In this document: positions 5,288 through 62,699 of the stretch, piece by piece
Layout: each line of letters begins with the position of its first letter
Position numbering within the stretch: position 1 is the stretch's first letter
Source of the DNA: Spirochaetia bacterium
Lineage (GTDB): Bacteria; Spirochaetota; Spirochaetia; SZUA-6; Bin103
Reading direction: 5' to 3'
DNA length: 64,000 bases
Assembly: GCA_965215345.1 (NCBI GenBank)
Contig: CBDCDL010000001.1
Coordinates: forward strand, 320,163 to 384,162
The notes under the pieces: model-generated
The model's input: only the letters and a program-made list of their open reading frames with translations
Database searches by the model: none
Told to the model about the DNA's origin: nothing
Made by a program: the position numbers and the translations under genes

Positions 5288-6232
5288 CTACTCCTTGATG
5301 GCGCCGATCATGATGCCTCGCACGAAATAGCGCTGGATGAACGGATACACCAGCAGGATCGGCGCCACGCTTACGATGACGATCGCGGCGCGCATCTTGG
5401 CCAGCCAGCCGTTGCGGATGTAGGCGGCGCTGGCGTCTTCTTCCAGTCCCTCGATGATGCTGTTGATGTTGCCGCCGAAGTCGCGCAGGATGAGAAATCG
5501 GCGCAGGACGATCGTCAGCGGCATCTTCTCCTGGTCGTACAGATAGACCATCGGGCGAAAGAACTCGTTCCACATCGACACGGCCGCGAACAGGCCGATC
5601 GTCGCGAGAATCGGCACGATCAGCGGCAGCACGATGCGGAGGTAGATCAGGAAGTCGCCACCGCCGTCGATGTACACGGAGTCCTTCAGCGATTGATGCA
5701 CCGTCTGCCGGATGGCGGTGCGGAAGATGAAGATGAAGAAGGGATTGACCGCCGTGGGCAGCACGATGGCCCACAGCGTGTTGACCATTCCCAGGGTCCG
5801 GATCCACAGAAACACCGGGATCAGTCCGCCCTCGAAGAACAACATCGCCGCCAGATACAGGGACACCGACCGCTTGAAGCGGAAGCGGTCCTCGGCCAGC
5901 ACGAAACCGGCCATCGAGGACAGCCACCCCACCAGCACCGTGAACACGGTCGCATACAGAATGGAATTCAGATAGGCGCGCAGGATGAGCGGATTGCGGA
6001 ACACGAACTCGTAGATTTCGAACCGCATGTCATGCGGCCACAGCACGATGCGGCCCAGCCCGACGGACTCGTAACTGCTGATCGACACCGAGAACAGGTA
6101 GATGAACGGGTACAGGCAGACTGCGCAGACCAGGACGCCGAAGGCGGCGTTGCACAGGTCGAACACGCGCGCCGGCATCGACTCCCGGTAGCGGACCGGC
6201 CGCTTGGCGTGCGGCTCCGTCGATGCGGCCAC
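5288..6232 (-). CDS. Carbohydrate ABC transporter permease (CUT1 family, LplC/AraQ/MalG-like).
   Basis: 314 aa, multi-TM. Conserved EAA-loop region DSVYIDGGGDFLIYLRIVLPLIVPILAT. Adjacent to a second permease and a solute-binding protein on the same strand. Confidence 0.85.
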   Translation of the reverse strand: MAASTEPHAKRPVRYRESMPARVFDLCNAAFGVLVCAVCLYPFIYLFSVSISSYESVGLGRIVLWPHDMRFEIYEFVFRNPLILRAYLNSILYATVFTVLVGWLSSMAGFVLAEDRFRFKRSVSLYLAAMLFFEGGLIPVFLWIRTLGMVNTLWAIVLPTAVNPFFIFIFRTAIRQTVHQSLKDSVYIDGGGDFLIYLRIVLPLIVPILATIGLFAAVSMWNEFFRPMVYLYDQEKMPLTIVLRRFLILRDFGGNINSIIEGLEEDASAAYIRNGWLAKMRAAIVIVSVAPILLVYPFIQRYFVRGIMIGAIKE

Positions 6233-40740: not shown

Positions 40741-41955
40741 ATGAGTTCAGAGTGTTGCGGATGGGACGATCTGCTGGCTCGCTCCGTGCCGAGCGAACCG
40801 GTCGCGCGCACCGCGCATCCGACGGCCGCCTACGACTTCGGGGTCGCCTATCCCGATCCCGACTCGCTGCCGCTCGACGAACTGGTCGAGTGCCTGCGTG
40901 ACGAGCTGGCCGTCGCCGGCCGCAGCCTGGCGCACTACCCGCACCCGCTCGGTTACCCGCCGCTGCGCGAGTGGCTGACCGGCCGGCTCGCCGAGACCCG
41001 TGGATTCACGGTGGACGCCGACAGCATCCTCCTGGGCTCCGGGTCGAGCGAGCCCAATTTCCTGGTCGCGCAGGCGCTGGTCGATCCCGGTGACGTGGTG
41101 CTGGTGGAGGACTTCACCTATGCCGGCACGCTCGGCATCCTGCGCCGCTTCGGCGCCGACATCCGGGGCGTGGAGTCGGACGACGAGGGCATGCTGCCCG
41201 ACTCGCTGGAGTACCAGATCCAGGCGGCACTGGACGACGGCAAGCGCGTGAAGGCGGTCTACACGGTGCCGACCTTCCAGAATCCGCTCGGCTGGGTGGA
41301 GTCGATGGCGCGGCGCGAGGCGGTGAGCGAGATCGCCGCCCGCTCCGGCGTGCCGGTGTGGGAGGACGACTGCTACGTCGATCTGGCCTTCGAGGGACAG
41401 GAGGTGCCGGCCGCCATTCGCGCGCTCGACGACAGCGGCCGCACGATCTACGTCGCCTCCTTCTCCAAGAACATCGGACCGGGCATGCGGATCGGCTACG
41501 TGACGGCTGCGCCGGCGCTGATGGATCGGATGATGGCCGTCAAGGGCGTCGGCGCCGTCAGTCAGTTCACGGCGATGGCCGTGCACCGGTATGCGGAGAG
41601 CGGTGGGCTTGCGGCCCACATCGACCGCGTGCGCGGCCTGCTGCGCGCCAAGCGAGACGCCATCCTGACCGCGCTCGACGCGCACCTGGGCGGCCGCGCG
41701 CGCTGGACCAGCCCGTCCGGCGGGCTGTTCGTGTTCGTGCAGATGCTCGACGGCTCGGACGCCGTGGCCGCCAGCGAGCGCGGGGCCGAGAACGGGGTGC
41801 TGTTCGCGCCGGGACCGCGCACCGCCGCCGACGGCGTGTCGGGGCGAGACCGGATGCGGTTGTGCTTCGGCTGGAACAGGCCGGACGAGATGGACGCCGG
41901 CATCGCGGCGCTGGCCGGGCTGCTGCAGCCGGAGCTGGCCGCGGTCAGCGGCTAA
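40741..41955 (+). CDS. PLP-dependent aminotransferase class I/II (2-aminoadipate transaminase/LysN-like), first gene of the operon that continues into the DPA genes.
   Basis: 404 aa. LGSGSSEPNFL, TVPTFQNPLG, FSKNIGPGMRIGY. There is a 19-nt gap to the next gene. Confidence 0.8.
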   Translation: MSSECCGWDDLLARSVPSEPVARTAHPTAAYDFGVAYPDPDSLPLDELVECLRDELAVAGRSLAHYPHPLGYPPLREWLTGRLAETRGFTVDADSILLGSGSSEPNFLVAQALVDPGDVVLVEDFTYAGTLGILRRFGADIRGVESDDEGMLPDSLEYQIQAALDDGKRVKAVYTVPTFQNPLGWVESMARREAVSEIAARSGVPVWEDDCYVDLAFEGQEVPAAIRALDDSGRTIYVASFSKNIGPGMRIGYVTAAPALMDRMMAVKGVGAVSQFTAMAVHRYAESGGLAAHIDRVRGLLRAKRDAILTALDAHLGGRARWTSPSGGLFVFVQMLDGSDAVAASERGAENGVLFAPGPRTAADGVSGRDRMRLCFGWNRPDEMDAGIAALAGLLQPELAAVSG

Positions 41956-41973
41956 GCTAAGCTAAGGCTCGAC

Positions 41974-43439
41974 GTGATCCTGCAGCGGCGTGAGCAGGAG
42001 CGAACCGCCCGACGAGCGGCTCCGGTGCCGCTCGTGGTCGACGTCGACGGCTCCCTGGTCAGCGGGGATCTGTTGATCGAGGGCGTCGCCCGGCTGCTGG
42101 CGGTGGCGCCGTTGCGCTTGTTCGCCCTGCCGTTCTGGTTGGCCGGTGGGCGCGCCGCGCTGAAGCGCAGGGTCGCGGAAGCCGTGCCGTTGCCCCCGGA
42201 GACGCTGGTGCTGAACCCGGCCGTGCTGGATGAGATCGCCGCCGCCACGACGGCGGGTCGCGAGGTGTGGCTGGCCTCCGCTGCCGACGAGCTGGTGGTC
42301 GCGCCGCTCGCCGAGCGGTTTTGCGGGGGGGGGGGGGGGGGGGGGTACTCGCCTCGGACGGACGCACCAATCTGGCGGGTCGGGCCAAGGCCGCCGCGCT
42401 GGTCGAGCGCTTCGGCGAAGGCGGATTCGATTACCTCGGTAACGAGCGGCGCGATGTAGCCGTCTGGCAACGGGCGAGGCGCGCCATCGGGGTCGCCCTG
42501 TCGGCGCGCCTCGCCCGGAAGGTGCGCGCGCTGGACGGCGACGCCCGGTTTCTCCCGGGGCTCGGCGGCCGTCCGCATGACTATCTGCTGGCACTGCGCC
42601 CGCACCAGTGGATCAAGAACGTGCTCGTGTTTCTTCCTCTGATCGCGGCGCACGCGACCGATCCGGGGCGGTACCTGGTAGCGGCCGGGGTGTTCGCGGC
42701 GCTGTCCGCGCTCGCGTCCGGCGCCTATTTGCTGAACGATCTGCTCGATCTGCCGCACGACCGGCGGCACGAGAGCAAGCGTCGGCGCCCGCTGACCGCC
42801 GGGAAGGTGCCGTTGCTGCCGATGCTCGGCCTGGGCGCGGCGCTGGCGGCCGGGGGATTGGCCCTGGGGTTCGCGCTGTCCGCGACCGCAGGGGCGTTCG
42901 TGCTGCTCTACCTGGCCGCGACGCTCGCCTACTCGCTGTGGCTGAAGCGCAAGATCTTCGTCGACGTCGTGGCGCTGGCACTGCTCTACGCGGTGCGCGT
43001 GCTGGCCGGCGCGGCGGCGGTCGCGGTGCCGCTGTCGCCCTGGTTCCTGGCGTTCTTTCTGTTCGTGTTCCTGACGCTGGCGGTCGTCAAGCGGCAAAGC
43101 GAGCTGTGCGCGCTGCGTGATGCAGGCCGTTCCGCGTCCGACGGGCGCGCCTATCAGGCCGGAGACATGCCGGTGATGGCGGCGCTCGGCGCGGCCAGCA
43201 GCTTCGCGGCGGTGGTGGTGGTCACCCTCTACCTGCAGAGCCCGGACGTAGAGCGACGCTATGCCCGACCGGAGCTGCTGTGGCTGGTCTGCCCGCTGCT
43301 GCTGTACTGGCTGGGGCGCATGACGCTGCTCGCTCATCGCGGGACGGTGGACGCCGACCCGCTGGTGTTCGCGCTACGCGATCGAGCGTTCTGGGTGACC
43401 GCCGCCGCCATCCTGGCCGTATTCGCAGCGGCGTTGTGA
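41974..43439 (+). pseudogene. HAD-IB-like phosphatase domain fused to a UbiA-family polyprenyl-phosphate phosphoribosyltransferase (Rv3806c/DPPR-synthase-like). A 21-G homopolymer at the domain junction splits it across two frames, so the gene is currently out of frame.
   Basis: ORF 41974..42459 (GTG start) holds HAD motif I VVDVDGSL. ORF 42267..43439 holds UbiA motifs NDLLDLPHDRRH and multiple TM segments. The frames meet only inside G21 (42325-42345). Confidence 0.7.
42325..42345 (+). repeat. Homopolymeric G21 tract within a coding sequence.
   Basis: Counted directly; both flanking ORF translations show poly-Gly (FCGGGGGGGY / RGGGGGGV) across it. Confidence 0.9.
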
Positions 43440-43441
43440 CG

Positions 43442-43864
43442 ATGACAGTCGGCGTGTCCTCCGCGGCGCTCGCCGCGCGCTATGCCGCCTGTGCCGCGGC
43501 CGCCACGGCGGCCAACGTCGCCACGCAACGAATCACCAGCGCGCTGTATGCCGGCCGCTTCGAGCTGTACGCGGCGATGGCGGCCGGCACGCTCACCGGA
43601 CTGGTCGCCAAGTATCTCCTGGACCGGCGCTGGATATTCCCTACCCGGCGTGCCGCGTTGGGCGGCCACGCCGTCGCGTTCGCCCGCTATACGCTGACGG
43701 GCGCCGCGACGACGTGCCTGTTCTGGGGGACCGAGCTGGCGTTCGCGGCGCTCGGCGACGCACGGTGGCTGCGCTACGCTGGCGCCGTCCTCGGTCTGAC
43801 TGTCGGCTATCTGACCAAGTACCGCCTCGACCGCCGCTTCGTGTTCCGGGAGCCGGCCGCGTGA
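43442..43864 (+). CDS. GtrA-family small membrane protein (Rv3789-like candidate polyprenyl-phospho-sugar flippase/anchor).
   Basis: 140 aa, frame-checked start. KYLLDRRWIF and YLTKYRLDRRFVF GtrA signatures; 4 predicted TM segments. Confidence 0.75.
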   Translation: MTVGVSSAALAARYAACAAAATAANVATQRITSALYAGRFELYAAMAAGTLTGLVAKYLLDRRWIFPTRRAALGGHAVAFARYTLTGAATTCLFWGTELAFAALGDARWLRYAGAVLGLTVGYLTKYRLDRRFVFREPAA

Positions 43865-45192
43865 TGCTCTCCGGGTGGGGTCGGTATCCGGTGCTGGACT
43901 GCCGCGTGGCGTATCTGCGCCGGCGCGAAGACCTGCCAGCGCTGCTCGGGCGCGGCGCTACGCTGATCGCGCGCGGCAACGGTCGCTCCTACGGCGACGC
44001 TGCGCTCAACCCGGAGCTGACGCTGTCGATGCTGGCGCTGGACCGGATGCAGGCGTTCGACGCTGCCACCGGTCTGCTGACCTGCGAAGCCGGCGTGCTG
44101 CTGGCCGACATCCTCGACACGTTCATGCCGCGCGGCTGGTTCCCGCCGGTGGTGCCGGGCACGAAGCTGGTCACCGTGGGCGGCATGATCGCTGCCGACG
44201 TGCACGGCAAGAACCATCACCGCGACGGCACCTTCGGCGCGCACGTGCAGTCGCTGACGCTGGCGACCGCCGACGGCGCGGTTCGCGAGTGCAGCCGCAC
44301 GCAGCACGCGGACCTGTTCCGCGCCACCCTCGGCGGGATGGGGCTGACCGGCGTGATACTCTCCGCGCGTTTCCGCCTGCGGCCGGTCGAAACCGCCTTC
44401 GTGATGGAGGAGACCGTGGCCGCGCGTGACCTCGACGAGACCATGGCCCTGTGCGAGGCGTCCCGCGACTGGCCGTACAGCGTCGCCTGGATCGACTGCT
44501 TGGCGCGGGGCGCGAAGCTGGGCCGGGCGCTGCTGGCCCGCGGAGCGTTCCTGGAGCGCGGCGCGTTGCCGCCGCAGCTGGCGGCCGACCGGCTGCGTCT
44601 GCCGCCAGCGAGCCGGCTCGCCGTTCCGATCGACGCGCCGTCCGTGCTGCTCAACGGCGGCGTGATCGGCCTGTTCAACGGGCTGTATTACCGGCGCGGG
44701 CGCGCGCGCTCCGGGGCGCGGGTGGTGCACTGCGACCCGTTCTTCTTCCCCCTCGACCGGATCGCGGCGTGGAATCGCCTCTACGGGCGCCGCGGCTTCG
44801 TGCAGTACCAGTGCGTGCTGCCCAAGGACGAGAGCCCGGCCGGCGTCGCGGCGCTGCTGGAACGGTCCGCCGCGGCCGGGCAGGGCTCGTTCCTGGCGGT
44901 GCTCAAGCTGTTCGGCCCGGCCGGGGACGGGCTGCTGTCGTTCCCGATGGAGGGTTACACCCTGGCGCTCGATTTCCCCTTACGCCGCGGCACGCCGGCG
45001 CTGCTCGACGCGCTGGACCGGATCACCCACCGCCACGGCGGGCGTGTCTACCTCGCCAAGGACGCCCGCTGCTCGCCGGAGCGGGTGCGTGCCGGCTACC
45101 CCGGGCGCGACGCCTTCGCGGCGGTCCGAGCCGCAGCCGCCGGCGCCGCGCCCAGGTTCGCTTCCACGCTTTCGCGGAGGCTCGGATTGTGA
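43864..45192 (+). CDS. dprE1: Decaprenylphosphoryl-beta-D-ribose 2'-oxidase-like FAD-dependent oxidoreductase (DprE1 ortholog).
   Basis: 442 aa. ATG overlaps the gtrA stop. Close match to M. tuberculosis DprE1 over GRSYGD, PGTKLVTVGGMIAADVHGKNHH, GGMGLTGVIL, GFVQYQCVLP, KLFGP. Confidence 0.8.
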   Translation: MLSGWGRYPVLDCRVAYLRRREDLPALLGRGATLIARGNGRSYGDAALNPELTLSMLALDRMQAFDAATGLLTCEAGVLLADILDTFMPRGWFPPVVPGTKLVTVGGMIAADVHGKNHHRDGTFGAHVQSLTLATADGAVRECSRTQHADLFRATLGGMGLTGVILSARFRLRPVETAFVMEETVAARDLDETMALCEASRDWPYSVAWIDCLARGAKLGRALLARGAFLERGALPPQLAADRLRLPPASRLAVPIDAPSVLLNGGVIGLFNGLYYRRGRARSGARVVHCDPFFFPLDRIAAWNRLYGRRGFVQYQCVLPKDESPAGVAALLERSAAAGQGSFLAVLKLFGPAGDGLLSFPMEGYTLALDFPLRRGTPALLDALDRITHRHGGRVYLAKDARCSPERVRAGYPGRDAFAAVRAAAAGAAPRFASTLSRRLGL

Positions 45193-46283: not shown

Positions 46284-46373
46284 TGGTCATCTCGCCGAGC
46301 ACGGCCGTCGCGTGCCGACGTGCGTGCGTGCACGCTATTCCCGGCACGTCGAACGCTCACGGAGGTGCGGCCG

Positions 46374-49300
46374 GTGAGTGAACAGGACAAGGTTACGACG
46401 CCGAAAGACACCGCTCAGCGCAACCGATGGCGCGCCCTGATTGCTGGTTGTCTGGAGATCAAGGCGCGGTTCGAAGGAACGTTCGTGACGCTTGCGAAGA
46501 TCCTGAATACCCCCGTTCTGCTGCCGTTGATCGGCGGGTTGACATTCGTCGTCGTGTTTCATTTCGCGTACTCCGGCGTGGACGATGATCTGTATCAGGC
46601 TCGTGACGACGGTGTCATCACGCTGAGTCATGCCCGGAATCTCGTGGAATACGGGTTCATCGGAGTGAATCCTTCTGGAGGCCGTGTCGAGGGATACTCC
46701 GCGCCGGTTCAGTTCTTCCTGTTCGCCGCCGTGTACGCCGTTACGGGCACGGGCTACGCCGCTTACGCGACGGCACAGACCGTAGTCGCCACCTTCCTGC
46801 TGGGTGCGCTGTTCATACTGTTCTTCAGGAAGCGGAAGGTTCCGAGCCTGATCCTGACAGGGCTGGCTGCGCTGTTGCTCGCGTACGCCCGGCCGTTCAT
46901 CGAGTGGCATGGTTCGGGAATGGAGAACGCGATCACGCACGTACTCTTCCTGGCCACCGTGCTGACACTGGTCTCGTTTGTGCGGATGGAGCGGATCATC
47001 TACCCGCTGTCCTGCGTCGTGTTTCTGGCGACGATTTCGAGAATCGAGAGCATCTTCCACGTCGGCCCGCTGCTGGTCGTGTTCGGCGTATTCTGGCTGC
47101 TCGCGCTCCGGGACTGGCGCGGCATCCGCTTTGCGTTCGTCGTGCTAGGGCTGTGGGCCCTGTTCCAGGTGTGGCGGTATCACTATTTCGGCGAGTTACT
47201 GCCCAATACCGCCCACGCCCAGGGAATCTCCGTGTTCGACAACCTGCGCCCGTGGCTACGGTTGGACGTGGATCACATGCAGCGCGCTGCCACCCGTGCC
47301 CGGGACATGCTCGAGGTGCACGGCGGTATTGTGCTGCTGTTGGCGCTTCCAGCCACGCTAGTGGTCTCCCGCCGCCGGGAGACCGTCCTGTTGCTGCTCC
47401 TCATAGGTACTTTGGTCCTGACCGCCGCGCTTAACGAGTCGGTGTTCGGTCGCGACCGGATCGACCCGAACCGCACGACGACCCATGTGGCGGTGTTCTC
47501 AGCGCTGGGCAGCGCCCTGTTGCTGTTCGCCTGCCTTGACAACCGCCGGCGTGCATTGTGGGCCGCCCCGGCGCTCGGGCTGGTCGTGGTTGTCGTGTTC
47601 GGTATGAACGTCGTTCCTCCCTATCACTTGGGCTGGTCGACTGCCTCTTTCGAAATCCATAGAGACAAGTTCGCCGACATCGCGGCGGCAGAAGATCTAC
47701 CCCGAGCGACCGTAGCGAATCCTGATCTGGGCGCGATGAGCTACCACAAGCAGTTCAACATCGTGGATCTAGGGCGCATCGGTTCACCGATCATGGCGCG
47801 GACGTCGGGACCTGTCAGAGCCGACTATTTATTTGATTTCGCGGCCCCCGACATCATCGAGAGTCACTCCGCGTGGTCATGTGGTTACGATGGGGAGCTG
47901 TTCTCCGACCCCCGATTCGAGAAGCGGTATCAACCCGTTGAGACTTGGGTAACGGACTGGACCAGGAAGTGGTGTACATCCAACCCGGAATCCCAGTCCG
48001 GCTTCTGGATTCGTTCCGCGATTCTCAAGTCTTCGGAGTCCGCGGAGCGGCAGCTCATCGACCGGATGGCCGCGGACCCTTCCGCCGAGCGGCTCCGCGA
48101 CGAGCTGGCGAAGTGCCAGGCGATAGAGGACCCTGATTATCAGAATTGCGTGTACGTCGCCAGAACGGCTTGGCGGTTCCTGCCGGAACTGCGAAAGCAG
48201 CGCCAAGTCGATGCGCTCGACGATATCTTTTCGTCGAGCCTCAGCGCCGCCTTTGACCGCTCTCTCATCAACGGCCACCGCGACGGCCAGGCTCATCGCG
48301 ACGCCGTCGAGTTCATATGGGACAACTACCTGCGTGAGATCACAGACCGACAGCCGACCGTCAGCTCCGAGTTCGACGTGTATCTCGACGGGGAGGAGCT
48401 GATCTACGTCAAGCGGGGGTGCAGCGAGGAGGCCGTCACGCTGCCGTTCTTCGTGCACCTGATGCCGGTCGACCGGAGCGACCTGCCCGAGCATCGCAAG
48501 CAATACAAGTTCGACAACCTGGACTTCAGGTTCGAGGATGCCGGCGGCGTCAGAGAGGGCGATGTGTGCGCGGTAACGCGGAGGCTCCCGGACTACGAGA
48601 TCGCCGAGGTCAGAACCGGCCAGTACGTCTCCGGCGGCGAGCAGACGTGGAAGGTGAAGTTCCAGCCGGGTCAGACGCCGCCGGTACGCTCCCTGCTGGA
48701 CCGCATCGAAGCGCTGGACGGACCAATCATCAGCTCGGAGTTCGACGTATACCTCGACGGAAAGGAGCTGATCTACGTCAAGCGGGGGTGCAGCGAGGAG
48801 GCCGTCGCGCTGCCGTTCTTCGTGCACCTGACGCCGGTCGACCGGAGCGACCTGCCCGAGCATCGCAAGCAATACAAGTTCGACAACCTGGACTTCAGGT
48901 TCGAGGATGCCGGCGGCGTCAGAGAGGGCGATGTGTGCGCGGTAACGCGGGAACTCCCGGACTACGAGATCGCCGAGATCACAACCGGCCAGTACGTCTC
49001 CGGCGGGGAGCAGACCTGGAGGGTGGCATTCTCGACGGGCGGCACACCGCCACAGCCACAGCAGATCGCGACAGCGGCAGCGCAGCACGTCGGCACGGTC
49101 AGCGAGCAGCGTGAGACCGAGGAGGTCGTCGGCATCGACTCCCTCGTGGAACGCATCGAAGCGCTGGGAGGCCCCGTCGTCAGCTCGGAGTTCGACGTAT
49201 ACCTCGACGGAAAGGAGCTGATCTACGTCAAGCGGGGGTGCAGCGAGGAGGCCGTCACGCTGCCGTTCTTCGTGCACCTGATGCCGGTCGACCGGAGCGA

Positions 49301-61463: not shown

Positions 61464-62699
61464 TCAGCGCCAAGCCGAGGAAGTCTCGCGGTCCTGGCGC
61501 CGGATGAACTTGCCCAGAAGTGGCACGGCAAACGAATACCTCCCATGCCGGTTCTTGAACACAAGGCCCTGCGCGGCCAGCGCCACGAGCATCTGGTTGA
61601 CGTGGCTGCTGCTGAACGGTTTGCCGGAGGATCGTTTCGATTTCTCGACGACCTCCTGAACGGTGAACTCCTCGTCACAGCTCGGCAGGTGGGATATCAC
61701 GGAGAGCAGTTCCCGCTGGCGGTCCGTCGCGCGCGCCCAGCGGCCCGCGAAGAAGTCGGTATCCAGTTTCCGTTCGATCTCGGCGGCAGGCACCAGCGCC
61801 GGATCGCCCCGGTCGATCTTCTGAATAGAGGTGTCGTACACCTCTCTGCAGATGAACTGAATGAAGTATGGATATCCGCCTGACATGTCGATGATCAGAT
61901 CCACGGAGTTGCCGTCGAGATGTACTGGACAGTCGGCGTCATCCACCGGCCGGCGTATTGCGTCTTCACTCTCTTCCCTGTTCAGACTGTGCAGAAACAC
62001 GACTTTGAACATTCGCTCGGAAAAGGTCCGCGCCTCCACGAGCTTGGGGAACAGGGTCGGCAGGCCGGTCAGGACCAGCATCAGAGGGAGTCCCTTTCGT
62101 TGCAGCGACTGGAAGGTGTCGAGCAGCAGGGACAGCGGATACTGCTCCTTGGCCGACTGGTCGGCGAGGTTCTGTGCTTCGTCGTAGGCGAAGACGACCC
62201 CGCGCACGCTCCCTGATCGCGAGAGGGCGGCCCAAGTGATTTCCAGCACGGCCTTGAGCTTGTCGAGGGCGAGACCGGCAGTGCGGTGGTAGATGTCGAG
62301 GAGTTCGTCATAGCCAAGCGTGCGCTGGATGGTCTGTGCGGGCGCGGCGAATCCCGCGGGCCGTACCTCGTCGGTCGCAATGATCACGCCGGCGGTGACC
62401 GGCGCCAGATCGGTGCAGAGCCGTATGGCCATGGTTTCCTCGCCTACGCTGGTGGACTCCGAGATGTCGGTTCCGACCCAGACCCAACCCCGGCGGATCG
62501 CCTCCGGCTTGAACGAATCGAGCAGAACCGTCTTGCCTACCCCTCGAAGTCCTGTGAGAACCATGTTCTCCATGATCGTCGTCTGTCCGAGCAGCCGCAG
62601 AAACTCCCGGCGCTCCTCCTGCCGCCCGGCCAGGTACGGCGGTGGGTGGCCTGCCCCAGGGCGAAACGGGTTCGAGAAGTCGGTCATGGCGATGCTCAC
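61464..62699 (-). CDS. ATP-binding protein of the archaeal-type ATPase family (pfam01637/AAA-like, STAND-adjacent), with a C-terminal winged-helix-like region.
   Basis: 411 aa. FSNPFRPGAGHPPPYLAGRQEERREF...LTGLRGVGKTVLL (P-loop); VVFAYDEAQNL (Walker B region). Lower GC than its neighbours. AT-rich promoter upstream. Confidence 0.7.
   Translation of the reverse strand: MSIAMTDFSNPFRPGAGHPPPYLAGRQEERREFLRLLGQTTIMENMVLTGLRGVGKTVLLDSFKPEAIRRGWVWVGTDISESTSVGEETMAIRLCTDLAPVTAGVIIATDEVRPAGFAAPAQTIQRTLGYDELLDIYHRTAGLALDKLKAVLEITWAALSRSGSVRGVVFAYDEAQNLADQSAKEQYPLSLLLDTFQSLQRKGLPLMLVLTGLPTLFPKLVEARTFSERMFKVVFLHSLNREESEDAIRRPVDDADCPVHLDGNSVDLIIDMSGGYPYFIQFICREVYDTSIQKIDRGDPALVPAAEIERKLDTDFFAGRWARATDRQRELLSVISHLPSCDEEFTVQEVVEKSKRSSGKPFSSSHVNQMLVALAAQGLVFKNRHGRYSFAVPLLGKFIRRQDRETSSAWR

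Follow-up and report, generated by a model that had tools for sequence, protein, structure and literature searches.

The 64-kilobase (kb) window analysed here (the whole stretch of 64,000 nucleotides from contig CBDCDL010000001.1 of a Spirochaetia bacterium) carries, within a gene of the HAD-UbiA type, a run of exactly 21 consecutive G (G21; 42325-42345, plus strand, by direct count) across which two open reading frames (ORFs) overlap in different frames. Every other homopolymer in the window is 7 nucleotides (nt) long or shorter, and an independent-base model with G at 0.347 would predict 9e-6 runs of at least 21 G per window, at a window GC content of 67.5%. The first ORF occupies 41974-42459 (161 amino acids, aa) and the second 42267-43439 (390 aa), and both read poly-Gly from the run, as an earlier model-made note on the letters and ORFs of this DNA (hereafter the sequence-only reading) had described. 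On the ORF list and an alignment of 26 orthologues, positions 41974-42324 of the plus strand hold the 5' part of the HAD-UbiA (PRP-PPPRS) gene in the upstream frame, and 42346-43439 of the same strand hold the rest of it in the other frame, namely motifs III/IV of the HAD domain, a linker and a UbiA-family polyprenyl-phosphate phosphoribosyltransferase domain. By count and by orthologue spacing, G21 introduces a frame shift of -1/+2 relative to the downstream part. Translation in the upstream frame at 21 G ends at a premature TAG (42457-42459, plus strand, from the ORF list and the sequence), leaving the UbiA part in the other frame and a product of 161 aa without HAD motifs III/IV and without the entire UbiA domain; as assembled, the fusion is not a single continuous ORF. 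The predicted start is a GTG at 41974, ahead of which lie a (GCTAA)x3 pentanucleotide repeat (41951-41965) that runs across the stop of an aminotransferase gene, its end lying 8 nt ahead of the GTG, and, after the repeat, a Shine-Dalgarno-like AAGG motif. A scan around the tract found no promoter-like element for an internal start of a UbiA-only product, and no convincing pair of Shine-Dalgarno sequence and start codon for such a product was seen by eye.

Apart from the frame step at the tract, the window gene is an intact HAD-UbiA fusion. With the two pieces joined into a repaired protein as query, more than 800 proteins match at E <= 1e-10, and the best 120 of these are without exception single chains, 466-543 aa long, that span the two halves with 67-76% identity, many of them annotated as HAD (PF12710) plus UbiA. 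Orthologues are therefore single fused genes with no intergenic region at this point, and the fusion that the sequence-only reading had recognised is borne out by a full-length match of the repaired protein to NCBIfam NF006088 (PRK08238; 541.6 bits against a cut-off of 351, positions 5-479 of 482). Truncated orthologues are on record as proteins of 466-470 aa. The downstream ORF carries Pfam UbiA (4.5e-21), and the family profile aligns over the entire C-terminal domain with the structure of the Mycobacterium tuberculosis decaprenyl-phosphate phosphoribosyltransferase (8j8j, 5e-35). Upstream, the shorter piece encodes HAD motif I (DVDGS; D23, D25) and motif II, with D23, G26 and S102 invariant among 26 full-length orthologues; DVDGS and NDLLDLPHD, the Asp-rich NDxxDxxxD motif of the UbiA domain, both fall in invariant columns of a 27-sequence alignment, and its invariant columns, about 130 in number, are all retained on both sides of the tract. 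The GC content at third codon positions (GC3) is 0.87 and 0.85 in the two pieces, and a GC3 scan of the window, with its long uninterrupted ORFs, found no further frame break. By homology, the repaired enzyme would transfer a phosphoribosyl group to polyprenyl phosphate and remove the 5'-phosphate.

The effect of the tract on the frame follows from the spacing of conserved codons. From the end of a conserved Glu codon (42315) to the start of a conserved Leu codon (42348) the window has 32 nt, against 21 nt in 15 orthologous loci; therefore 19 or 22 G would give a single ORF, just as the sequence-only reading had calculated, and 10 G would restore the orthologue (ancestral) length. The segment reads CGGTTTTGC, then the run less its final base, then GTA, and a typical orthologue has ACGGTGGGGGCGGCGGGCTGC in its place. 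Because GGG is a minority codon in the window genes, making up just 17.5% of Gly codons, seven GGG in a row point to a repeat at the level of DNA and not to a poly-Gly peptide under selection. The same reading had placed the tract at the HAD-UbiA junction, and here it erred: the encoded residues, about 118-124, fall between HAD motif II (S102) and motifs III/IV (K139; GNERRD, 156-161), so the tract lies inside the HAD phosphatase domain, and the HAD-to-UbiA linker (residues about 167-208, low-confidence in the model) follows some 130-250 nt downstream. Aligned with 26 orthologues, the tract replaces an xVGAAGC segment between conserved PLAE and LASDG, and the orthologues have VGAAGC at the site and no homopolymer. 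The loop at this position has the same length, exactly 7 residues, in each of the 120 orthologues checked, and an AlphaFold model of the repaired protein of moderate quality (mean pLDDT, the predicted local distance difference test score, of 65, and used just for secondary structure near the loop) places residues 118-124, at low confidence, between a helix (106-117) and the next strand (from about 125). What stands at codons 118-124 of about 488 is a slippable homopolymer whose length sets the reading frame, an arrangement expected of a contingency locus.

A frameshift in the DNA might nevertheless be bypassed during expression. The 21-G allele could be recoded by RNA polymerase slippage, which would supply messenger RNAs with 22 or 19 G, or by a ribosomal -1 shift on G GGG GGG, and the tract would then tune dose or make for a leaky OFF state. 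Many overlapping X XXY YYZ heptamers can be read within the run, and frameshifted genes of other bacteria are rescued at homopolymers by slippage during transcription (PMC4256274, PMC5009743); the documented cases, however, are mostly A/T runs, and no stimulatory RNA structure was found downstream, where the fold is no better than that of shuffled sequences (z = -0.22). Recoding is in our judgement very unlikely.

Comparison with relatives has lent weight to the slipped-strand switch that the sequence-only reading proposed, since relatives carry tracts of 8-31 nt in ON and OFF phases, with length differences between near-identical genes; switching itself keeps the graded standing given below. 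The nearest loci come from metagenome-assembled genomes (MAGs), complete or nearly so, of uncultured bacteria, assembled from long reads and labelled Binatia, Bryobacterales, Gammaproteobacteria, Entotheonella, Pseudomonadales, Arenicellales and Alphaproteobacteria. Further near relatives are ENA contigs with names of the form ptg...c and ctg...l, which we take to indicate hifiasm and metaMDBG and hence long-read (HiFi-type) assemblies. We infer the habitat of the relatives from record titles alone, for example 'Candidatus Entotheonella'. The highest protein identity of any relative to the repaired window protein is 76%; exact-protein look-ups of the window GtrA and DprE1-like products found no record, and an exact-flank search with a variable gap found no match in JGI metagenomes. 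A related-locus scan of the JGI metagenomes returned relatives of at most 56% identity, used solely as negative controls in the comparison of tracts.

Pure G/C runs of 8-31 nt occur in the relatives, in and out of frame, at three other sites of the HAD-UbiA gene and in neighbouring genes of the cluster (loci are cited by handle where they must be told apart). At site A, in codons 3-10 at the N-terminus, L001 has C14, which leaves its ATG one base out of frame, with no other start codon found before the DVDG motif, and L084 has C22 in frame, encoding seven Pro. Site C, in a loop of the UbiA domain near residue 289, holds G22 in L083 and G20 in L167, both in frame, and no tract in P0086 and P0052, which are 93% identical relatives. 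At site D, in a C-terminal loop, G31 is in frame in L081, and four alleles are out of frame: G26 in L082 (3720-3745), G23 in L165 (11366-11388), G24 in L166 (11355-11378) and G12 in L013 (6879-6890), whose proteins stop soon after the run and end ...TGTV-stop. Near-identical genes are therefore unlike in run length at site D (G23, G24, G26 and G31), and among close relatives the lengths also differ with the G12 of L013 at that site and with G20 and G22 at site C.

Runs are also found in other genes of the cluster. G11 of L005 (12012-12022) and C12 of L008 (1607-1618) lie in the 5' coding parts of polytopic membrane proteins, C18 of L008 (3909-3926) about 100 nt upstream of a small membrane-protein gene, C20 of L009 just upstream of the gene for a secreted Ig-repeat protein that is divergent from HAD-UbiA, and C11 of L081 within a 391-aa cluster gene. 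The clearest tract-length polymorphism seen is in a gene downstream of DprE1, which is 96% identical in L083, L084 and L167, three contigs of one sample: with G8 (L083, 13682-13689) the gene is intact at 633 aa, with G10 (L084, 13329-13338) it is split into 258 and 366 aa, and with G14 (L167, 13682-13695) it is likewise split. Bacterial genomes seldom contain homopolymer runs longer than 10 (PMC9262707), and runs of at least 10 outside the cluster were found neither in the 64-kb window nor in 10-kb housekeeping flanks of L081, L083, L084, L166 and L167; in the window and the fetched flanks all such runs lie in or beside the cluster, that at 592 in L013 excepted. Among controls, 530 kb of JGI orthologous loci contain no G/C run of at least 9 and 831 kb of remaining genome loci contain a single G9, which makes one run of that length in about 1.36 Mb of distant orthologous loci, a comparison in which sequencing technology is confounded with lineage. 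Six long-read loci of close relatives (L003, L004, L006, L010, L011 and L055) have no run, so the long-read platform alone does not create them.

These comparisons bear on whether the window tract exists at all. A wholly artefactual run, arising from a two-colour poly-G read tail or a chimeric join, would have replaced about 13 nt of native sequence. The bases immediately to its left (TTTTGC) do differ from the orthologue consensus GTGGGGGCG, and 21 is a common smallest k-mer size in assembly; equivalent runs stand, however, at homologous sites in independent assemblies and samples (L013, L081, L082, L165 and L166), and some long-read relative loci have none, and we find such an origin scarcely credible. 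The two-colour read tail as such was rejected as a candidate, as it should yield tails, of G or of C according to the strand, and no interior run between collinear homologous codons.

Several observations weigh against treating G21 as a working switch, and the first concerns its length. The figure of 21 rests on the assembled sequence, homopolymers of 20-30 nt can be miscalled in HiFi-type assemblies, and the window assembly may be of the same kind. The tract could thus be real with a true mode of 22 or 19 (or another 3n+1) G, in which case the fusion would be intact, the frameshift would exist in the assembly only and the tract would still be mutable. The gene is perfect but for a single frame step within 32 nt, and the contig names of the nearest relatives suggest long-read assemblers. 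Homopolymers of at least 10 are problematic for long-read consensus (PMC9262707), and 7 of about 15 tracts in the relatives are out of frame, which fits noisy lengths as well as it fits switching. A length error sits less easily with G22 and G20 at site C, both in frame despite unlike flanks, with the shared phase of the G23, G24 and G26 contigs of one sample despite their different lengths and flank indels, and with a window whose other long genes show no break. We regard a consensus error, the alternative that the sequence-only reading had itself offered, as unlikely, albeit as a possibility to be taken seriously.

The other points on this side concern the relatives. No orthologue carries a tract at the window's own site, and all four OFF alleles at site D share the +1 phase, the G24 allele with two flank indels; because random switching or random length error predicts otherwise, the common phase speaks against free switching, and the truncated form might be tolerated or selected. 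Parts of the cluster are also visibly decayed. L013 has lost its HAD domain (5950-6020), its leader ...EPPLV being joined directly to AVWKRARR, and with this deletion and a G12 frameshift near the 3' end its HAD-UbiA gene has probably become a pseudogene; L165 has a truncated DprE1 and L082 a truncated transferase beside insertion sequence (IS) elements, and such elements surround the cluster. Fixed inactivation therefore does occur in the HAD-UbiA family, and the window gene could itself be a fixed pseudogene, inactivated by tract slippage in a lineage that is losing the pathway, as in genome decay of the symbiont type. Yet no second lesion was seen in HAD-UbiA, GtrA, the DprE1-like gene, the short-chain dehydrogenase/reductase (SDR) or the two large genes of the window, GC3 and invariant residues show no damage to either side of the tract, and a 21-nt run would revert so readily that a fixed state would be hard to maintain without further mutations. 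Fixed loss is, on this evidence, distinctly improbable.

We return to a slipped-strand contingency locus, a mutational ON/OFF switch in the HAD-UbiA donor gene, as the best explanation of G21, and put its probability at roughly one in two. By homology, the bifunctional HAD-phosphatase/UbiA-phosphoribosyltransferase would make polyprenyl-phosphate-ribofuranose from phosphoribosyl pyrophosphate (PRPP), the presumed entry step of periplasmic glycosylation with a pentofuranose, probably D-arabinofuranose, for which a GtrA flippase, an epimerase pair resembling DprE1/DprE2 and polytopic transferases would supply the remaining parts. With 21 G, translation would stop after 161 residues, no donor would be made and the pathway would be OFF; replication slippage to 22 or 19 G (generally 3n+1) would yield one protein of 487-488 residues and turn it ON. 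An insertion of 6-7 Gly in a surface loop between helix and strand should be tolerated. At such a length slippage would be frequent enough for populations of mixed tract length, of which the assembled G21 would be the modal, currently OFF allele. Reversible switching in the window organism itself is what we infer, and for the family of clusters the best-supported reading is that it behaves like a set of simple-sequence contingency loci. A mechanism of this kind is already known; new would be its unusual setting in GC-rich uncultured bacteria and the lengths of the tracts.

The surroundings of the runs have features in common. When all are oriented as C-runs, TA stands immediately before 5 of 11 independent sites, the window included (background 0.026, binomial p = 5e-6), and at the TA-preceded sites the run is followed by G or A and an AT-rich 7-mer, with A/T at 25 of 35 positions where the background is 35% (p = 1e-5). 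Flanks at about half of the independent sites are of the form TA-Cn-G(C)A plus an AT-rich stretch, for example GCAAAACC, GAAAAATC, AATTTTCC, GAATTCTG and GCATATTC; the signature was listed for the window (42325-42345, reverse complement), L001 (5963-5976), L008 (1607-1618 and 3909-3926), L013 (592-608), L084 (10019-10040) and L005 (12012-12022). At gene-start sites it may reflect just the AT-richness of 5' regions, which does not account for the window, L005 and L013, and the TA of the window could stem from a native Tyr codon like that of L004, L009 and L010. We know of no mechanism for such flanks. Among loci L001-L013, L081, L082 and L165, MAGs whose labels place them in different phyla or classes (Binatia, Bryobacterales, Gammaproteobacteria, Entotheonella) share 69-81% identity in the HAD-UbiA gene, and several contigs have transposases, integrases or ParB/helicase genes flanking the cluster, which together suggest its horizontal spread. 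One reading, tentative and rather doubtful, is that one mobile arabinofuranose (Araf)-type cluster has in recent times, and repeatedly, acquired very long runs (up to 31 nt) at many of its sites by a biased or dedicated tract-generating process, giving stochastic switching of surface pentofuranose in a host-associated microbiome, with the window G21 as one instance. It draws on a cluster common to differently labelled phyla at 70-80% identity and on the TA-Cn-G/AT-rich 7-mer flank at about half of the sites.

Downstream of the HAD-UbiA gene, the window appears to hold the whole pathway, uninterrupted: GtrA, DprE1-like and DprE2-like proteins and two polytopic proteins, a gene content that supports the arabinose-donor pathway named by the sequence-only reading. 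A small membrane protein of the GtrA family (43442-43864, plus strand; Pfam GtrA_DPMS_TM), which is proposed to flip the lipid-linked sugar, begins 3 nt past the UbiA stop and scores 143.9 bits against NF037976 (cut-off 50). It is followed on the same strand by a DprE1-like FAD oxidase (43864-45192; Pfam FAD_binding_4), which matches the NCBIfam DprE1 model over its full length at 433 bits, under the equivalog cut-off of 500. At the far end lies a DprE2-like SDR (53275-54027, plus strand), 79-80% identical by tblastn to the SDRs of the L166 and L081 clusters, with 346 bits against NCBIfam NF005489 (cut-off 267) and a full-length match of 197.8 bits to the DprE2 model, under its equivalog cut-off of 250. 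Between them, again on the plus strand, are a 1333-aa protein (46320-50321) with a polytopic N-terminal part and about five C-terminal repeat modules of 120 aa, and its 1024-aa paralogue (50204-53278, start uncertain). Modules and N-terminus of the former are homologous to cluster genes of relatives, and the N-terminal part of the latter shares 69-77% identity with cluster genes of L081 and L084. Neither large protein has a hit in Pfam, NCBIfam or PDB, and neither could be assigned to GT-C by sequence; the 1333-aa protein is a candidate transferase with putative glycan-binding modules. The modules, of about 120 aa, are near-identical between the two genes (up to 83% identity, about five and about three copies), recur at the C-termini of relatives' cluster genes and may, by analogy with the carbohydrate-binding module of Citrobacter youngae ORF12, bind glycans. 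Besides G21, the window has just two G/C runs longer than 6 nt, both of them C7 (51395-51401 and 62800-62806) and one of them in the 1024-aa cluster gene. Beyond the cluster, 54060-58859 probably contains three tandem paralogous genes and shows a recurrent pattern of antisense ORFs when scanned for GC3; weak AAA-ATPase matches fall to the first of them, and another gene, of the AAA_16 type, lies at 61464-62699 on the minus strand.

If the tract does switch, the committed first step towards a lipid-linked pentofuranose donor is under the control of a single mutable run, which would therefore decide whether that sugar reaches the surface in the first place. To our knowledge, nearly all known homopolymer contingency loci belong to a small number of cultured pathogens whose genomes are AT-rich or of moderate GC; with unusually long and recurrent loci of this kind in GC-rich uncultured bacteria, stochastic switching of surface glycans would be extended to environmental or symbiotic communities, where it could matter for phage escape or host recognition. 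There is also a practical side: gene callers split or truncate genes with such tracts, and run lengths in a long-read consensus need a check at the level of reads before a pseudogene is called.

The closest biochemical parallel is the three-component system of C. youngae, for which the text of Kelly et al. (PNAS 2024, PMC11127046), in the part on which we draw, identifies the HAD domain of ORF15 as a phosphoribose phosphatase and its UbiA domain as a polyprenyl-phosphate 5-phosphoribosyltransferase, the two jointly supplying a GtrA flippase and a GT-C transferase with undecaprenyl-phosphate-ribofuranose; arabinofuranose-adding systems are there reported also to carry DprE1/DprE2 homologues. 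Like the window, the ORF15 system as excerpted has an N-terminal HAD fused to a C-terminal UbiA beside a GtrA-type protein and polytopic transferases (candidate ones in the window) with C-terminal binding modules; homologues of DprE1/DprE2 are the mark of Araf-type systems. Unlike the window, systems of this type are described in the excerpted text without any homopolymer or phase variation (PMC11127046), and the window's candidate transferases, unlike the C. youngae GT-C enzyme, have no GT-C signature detectable by sequence. In M. tuberculosis, the UbiA domain has a full-length counterpart in Rv3806c (the DPPR synthase of 8j8j; E = 5e-35), and DprE1/DprE2 are homologues of the window's oxidase and reductase; a HAD domain is absent from Rv3806c, however, and its phosphatase, Rv3807c, is unrelated according to the same excerpted source (PMC11127046). 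The window proteins score under the NCBIfam equivalog cut-offs for DPPRS, DprE1 and DprE2.

For the switch itself the parallel is Neisseria gonorrhoeae, in which poly-G tracts in lgt glycosyltransferase genes switch the structure of the lipooligosaccharide (LOS; PMC2192423). As in lgtA/C/D, an intragenic G run sets the frame of a surface-glycan gene in the window family and several genes of the locus have runs; as at gonococcal-type loci, run lengths vary between close relatives of the window cluster. The runs of the window family, at 20-31 nt, are much longer than those of gonococcal-type loci, which measure about 8-17 nt. Contingency loci are found in Campylobacter and Haemophilus as well. 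The window family differs from gonococcal lgt in belonging to uncultured bacteria with genomes of 60-70% GC and in having its run in the synthase of a lipid-linked donor, whereby an entire branch would be affected and not one linkage. Finally, tssM of Citrobacter rodentium (PMC4256274; reviewed in PMC5009743) shares with the window a homopolymer frameshift in an otherwise intact gene, but cases of that type involve A/T runs, and heterogeneity at the level of RNA has been demonstrated for them.

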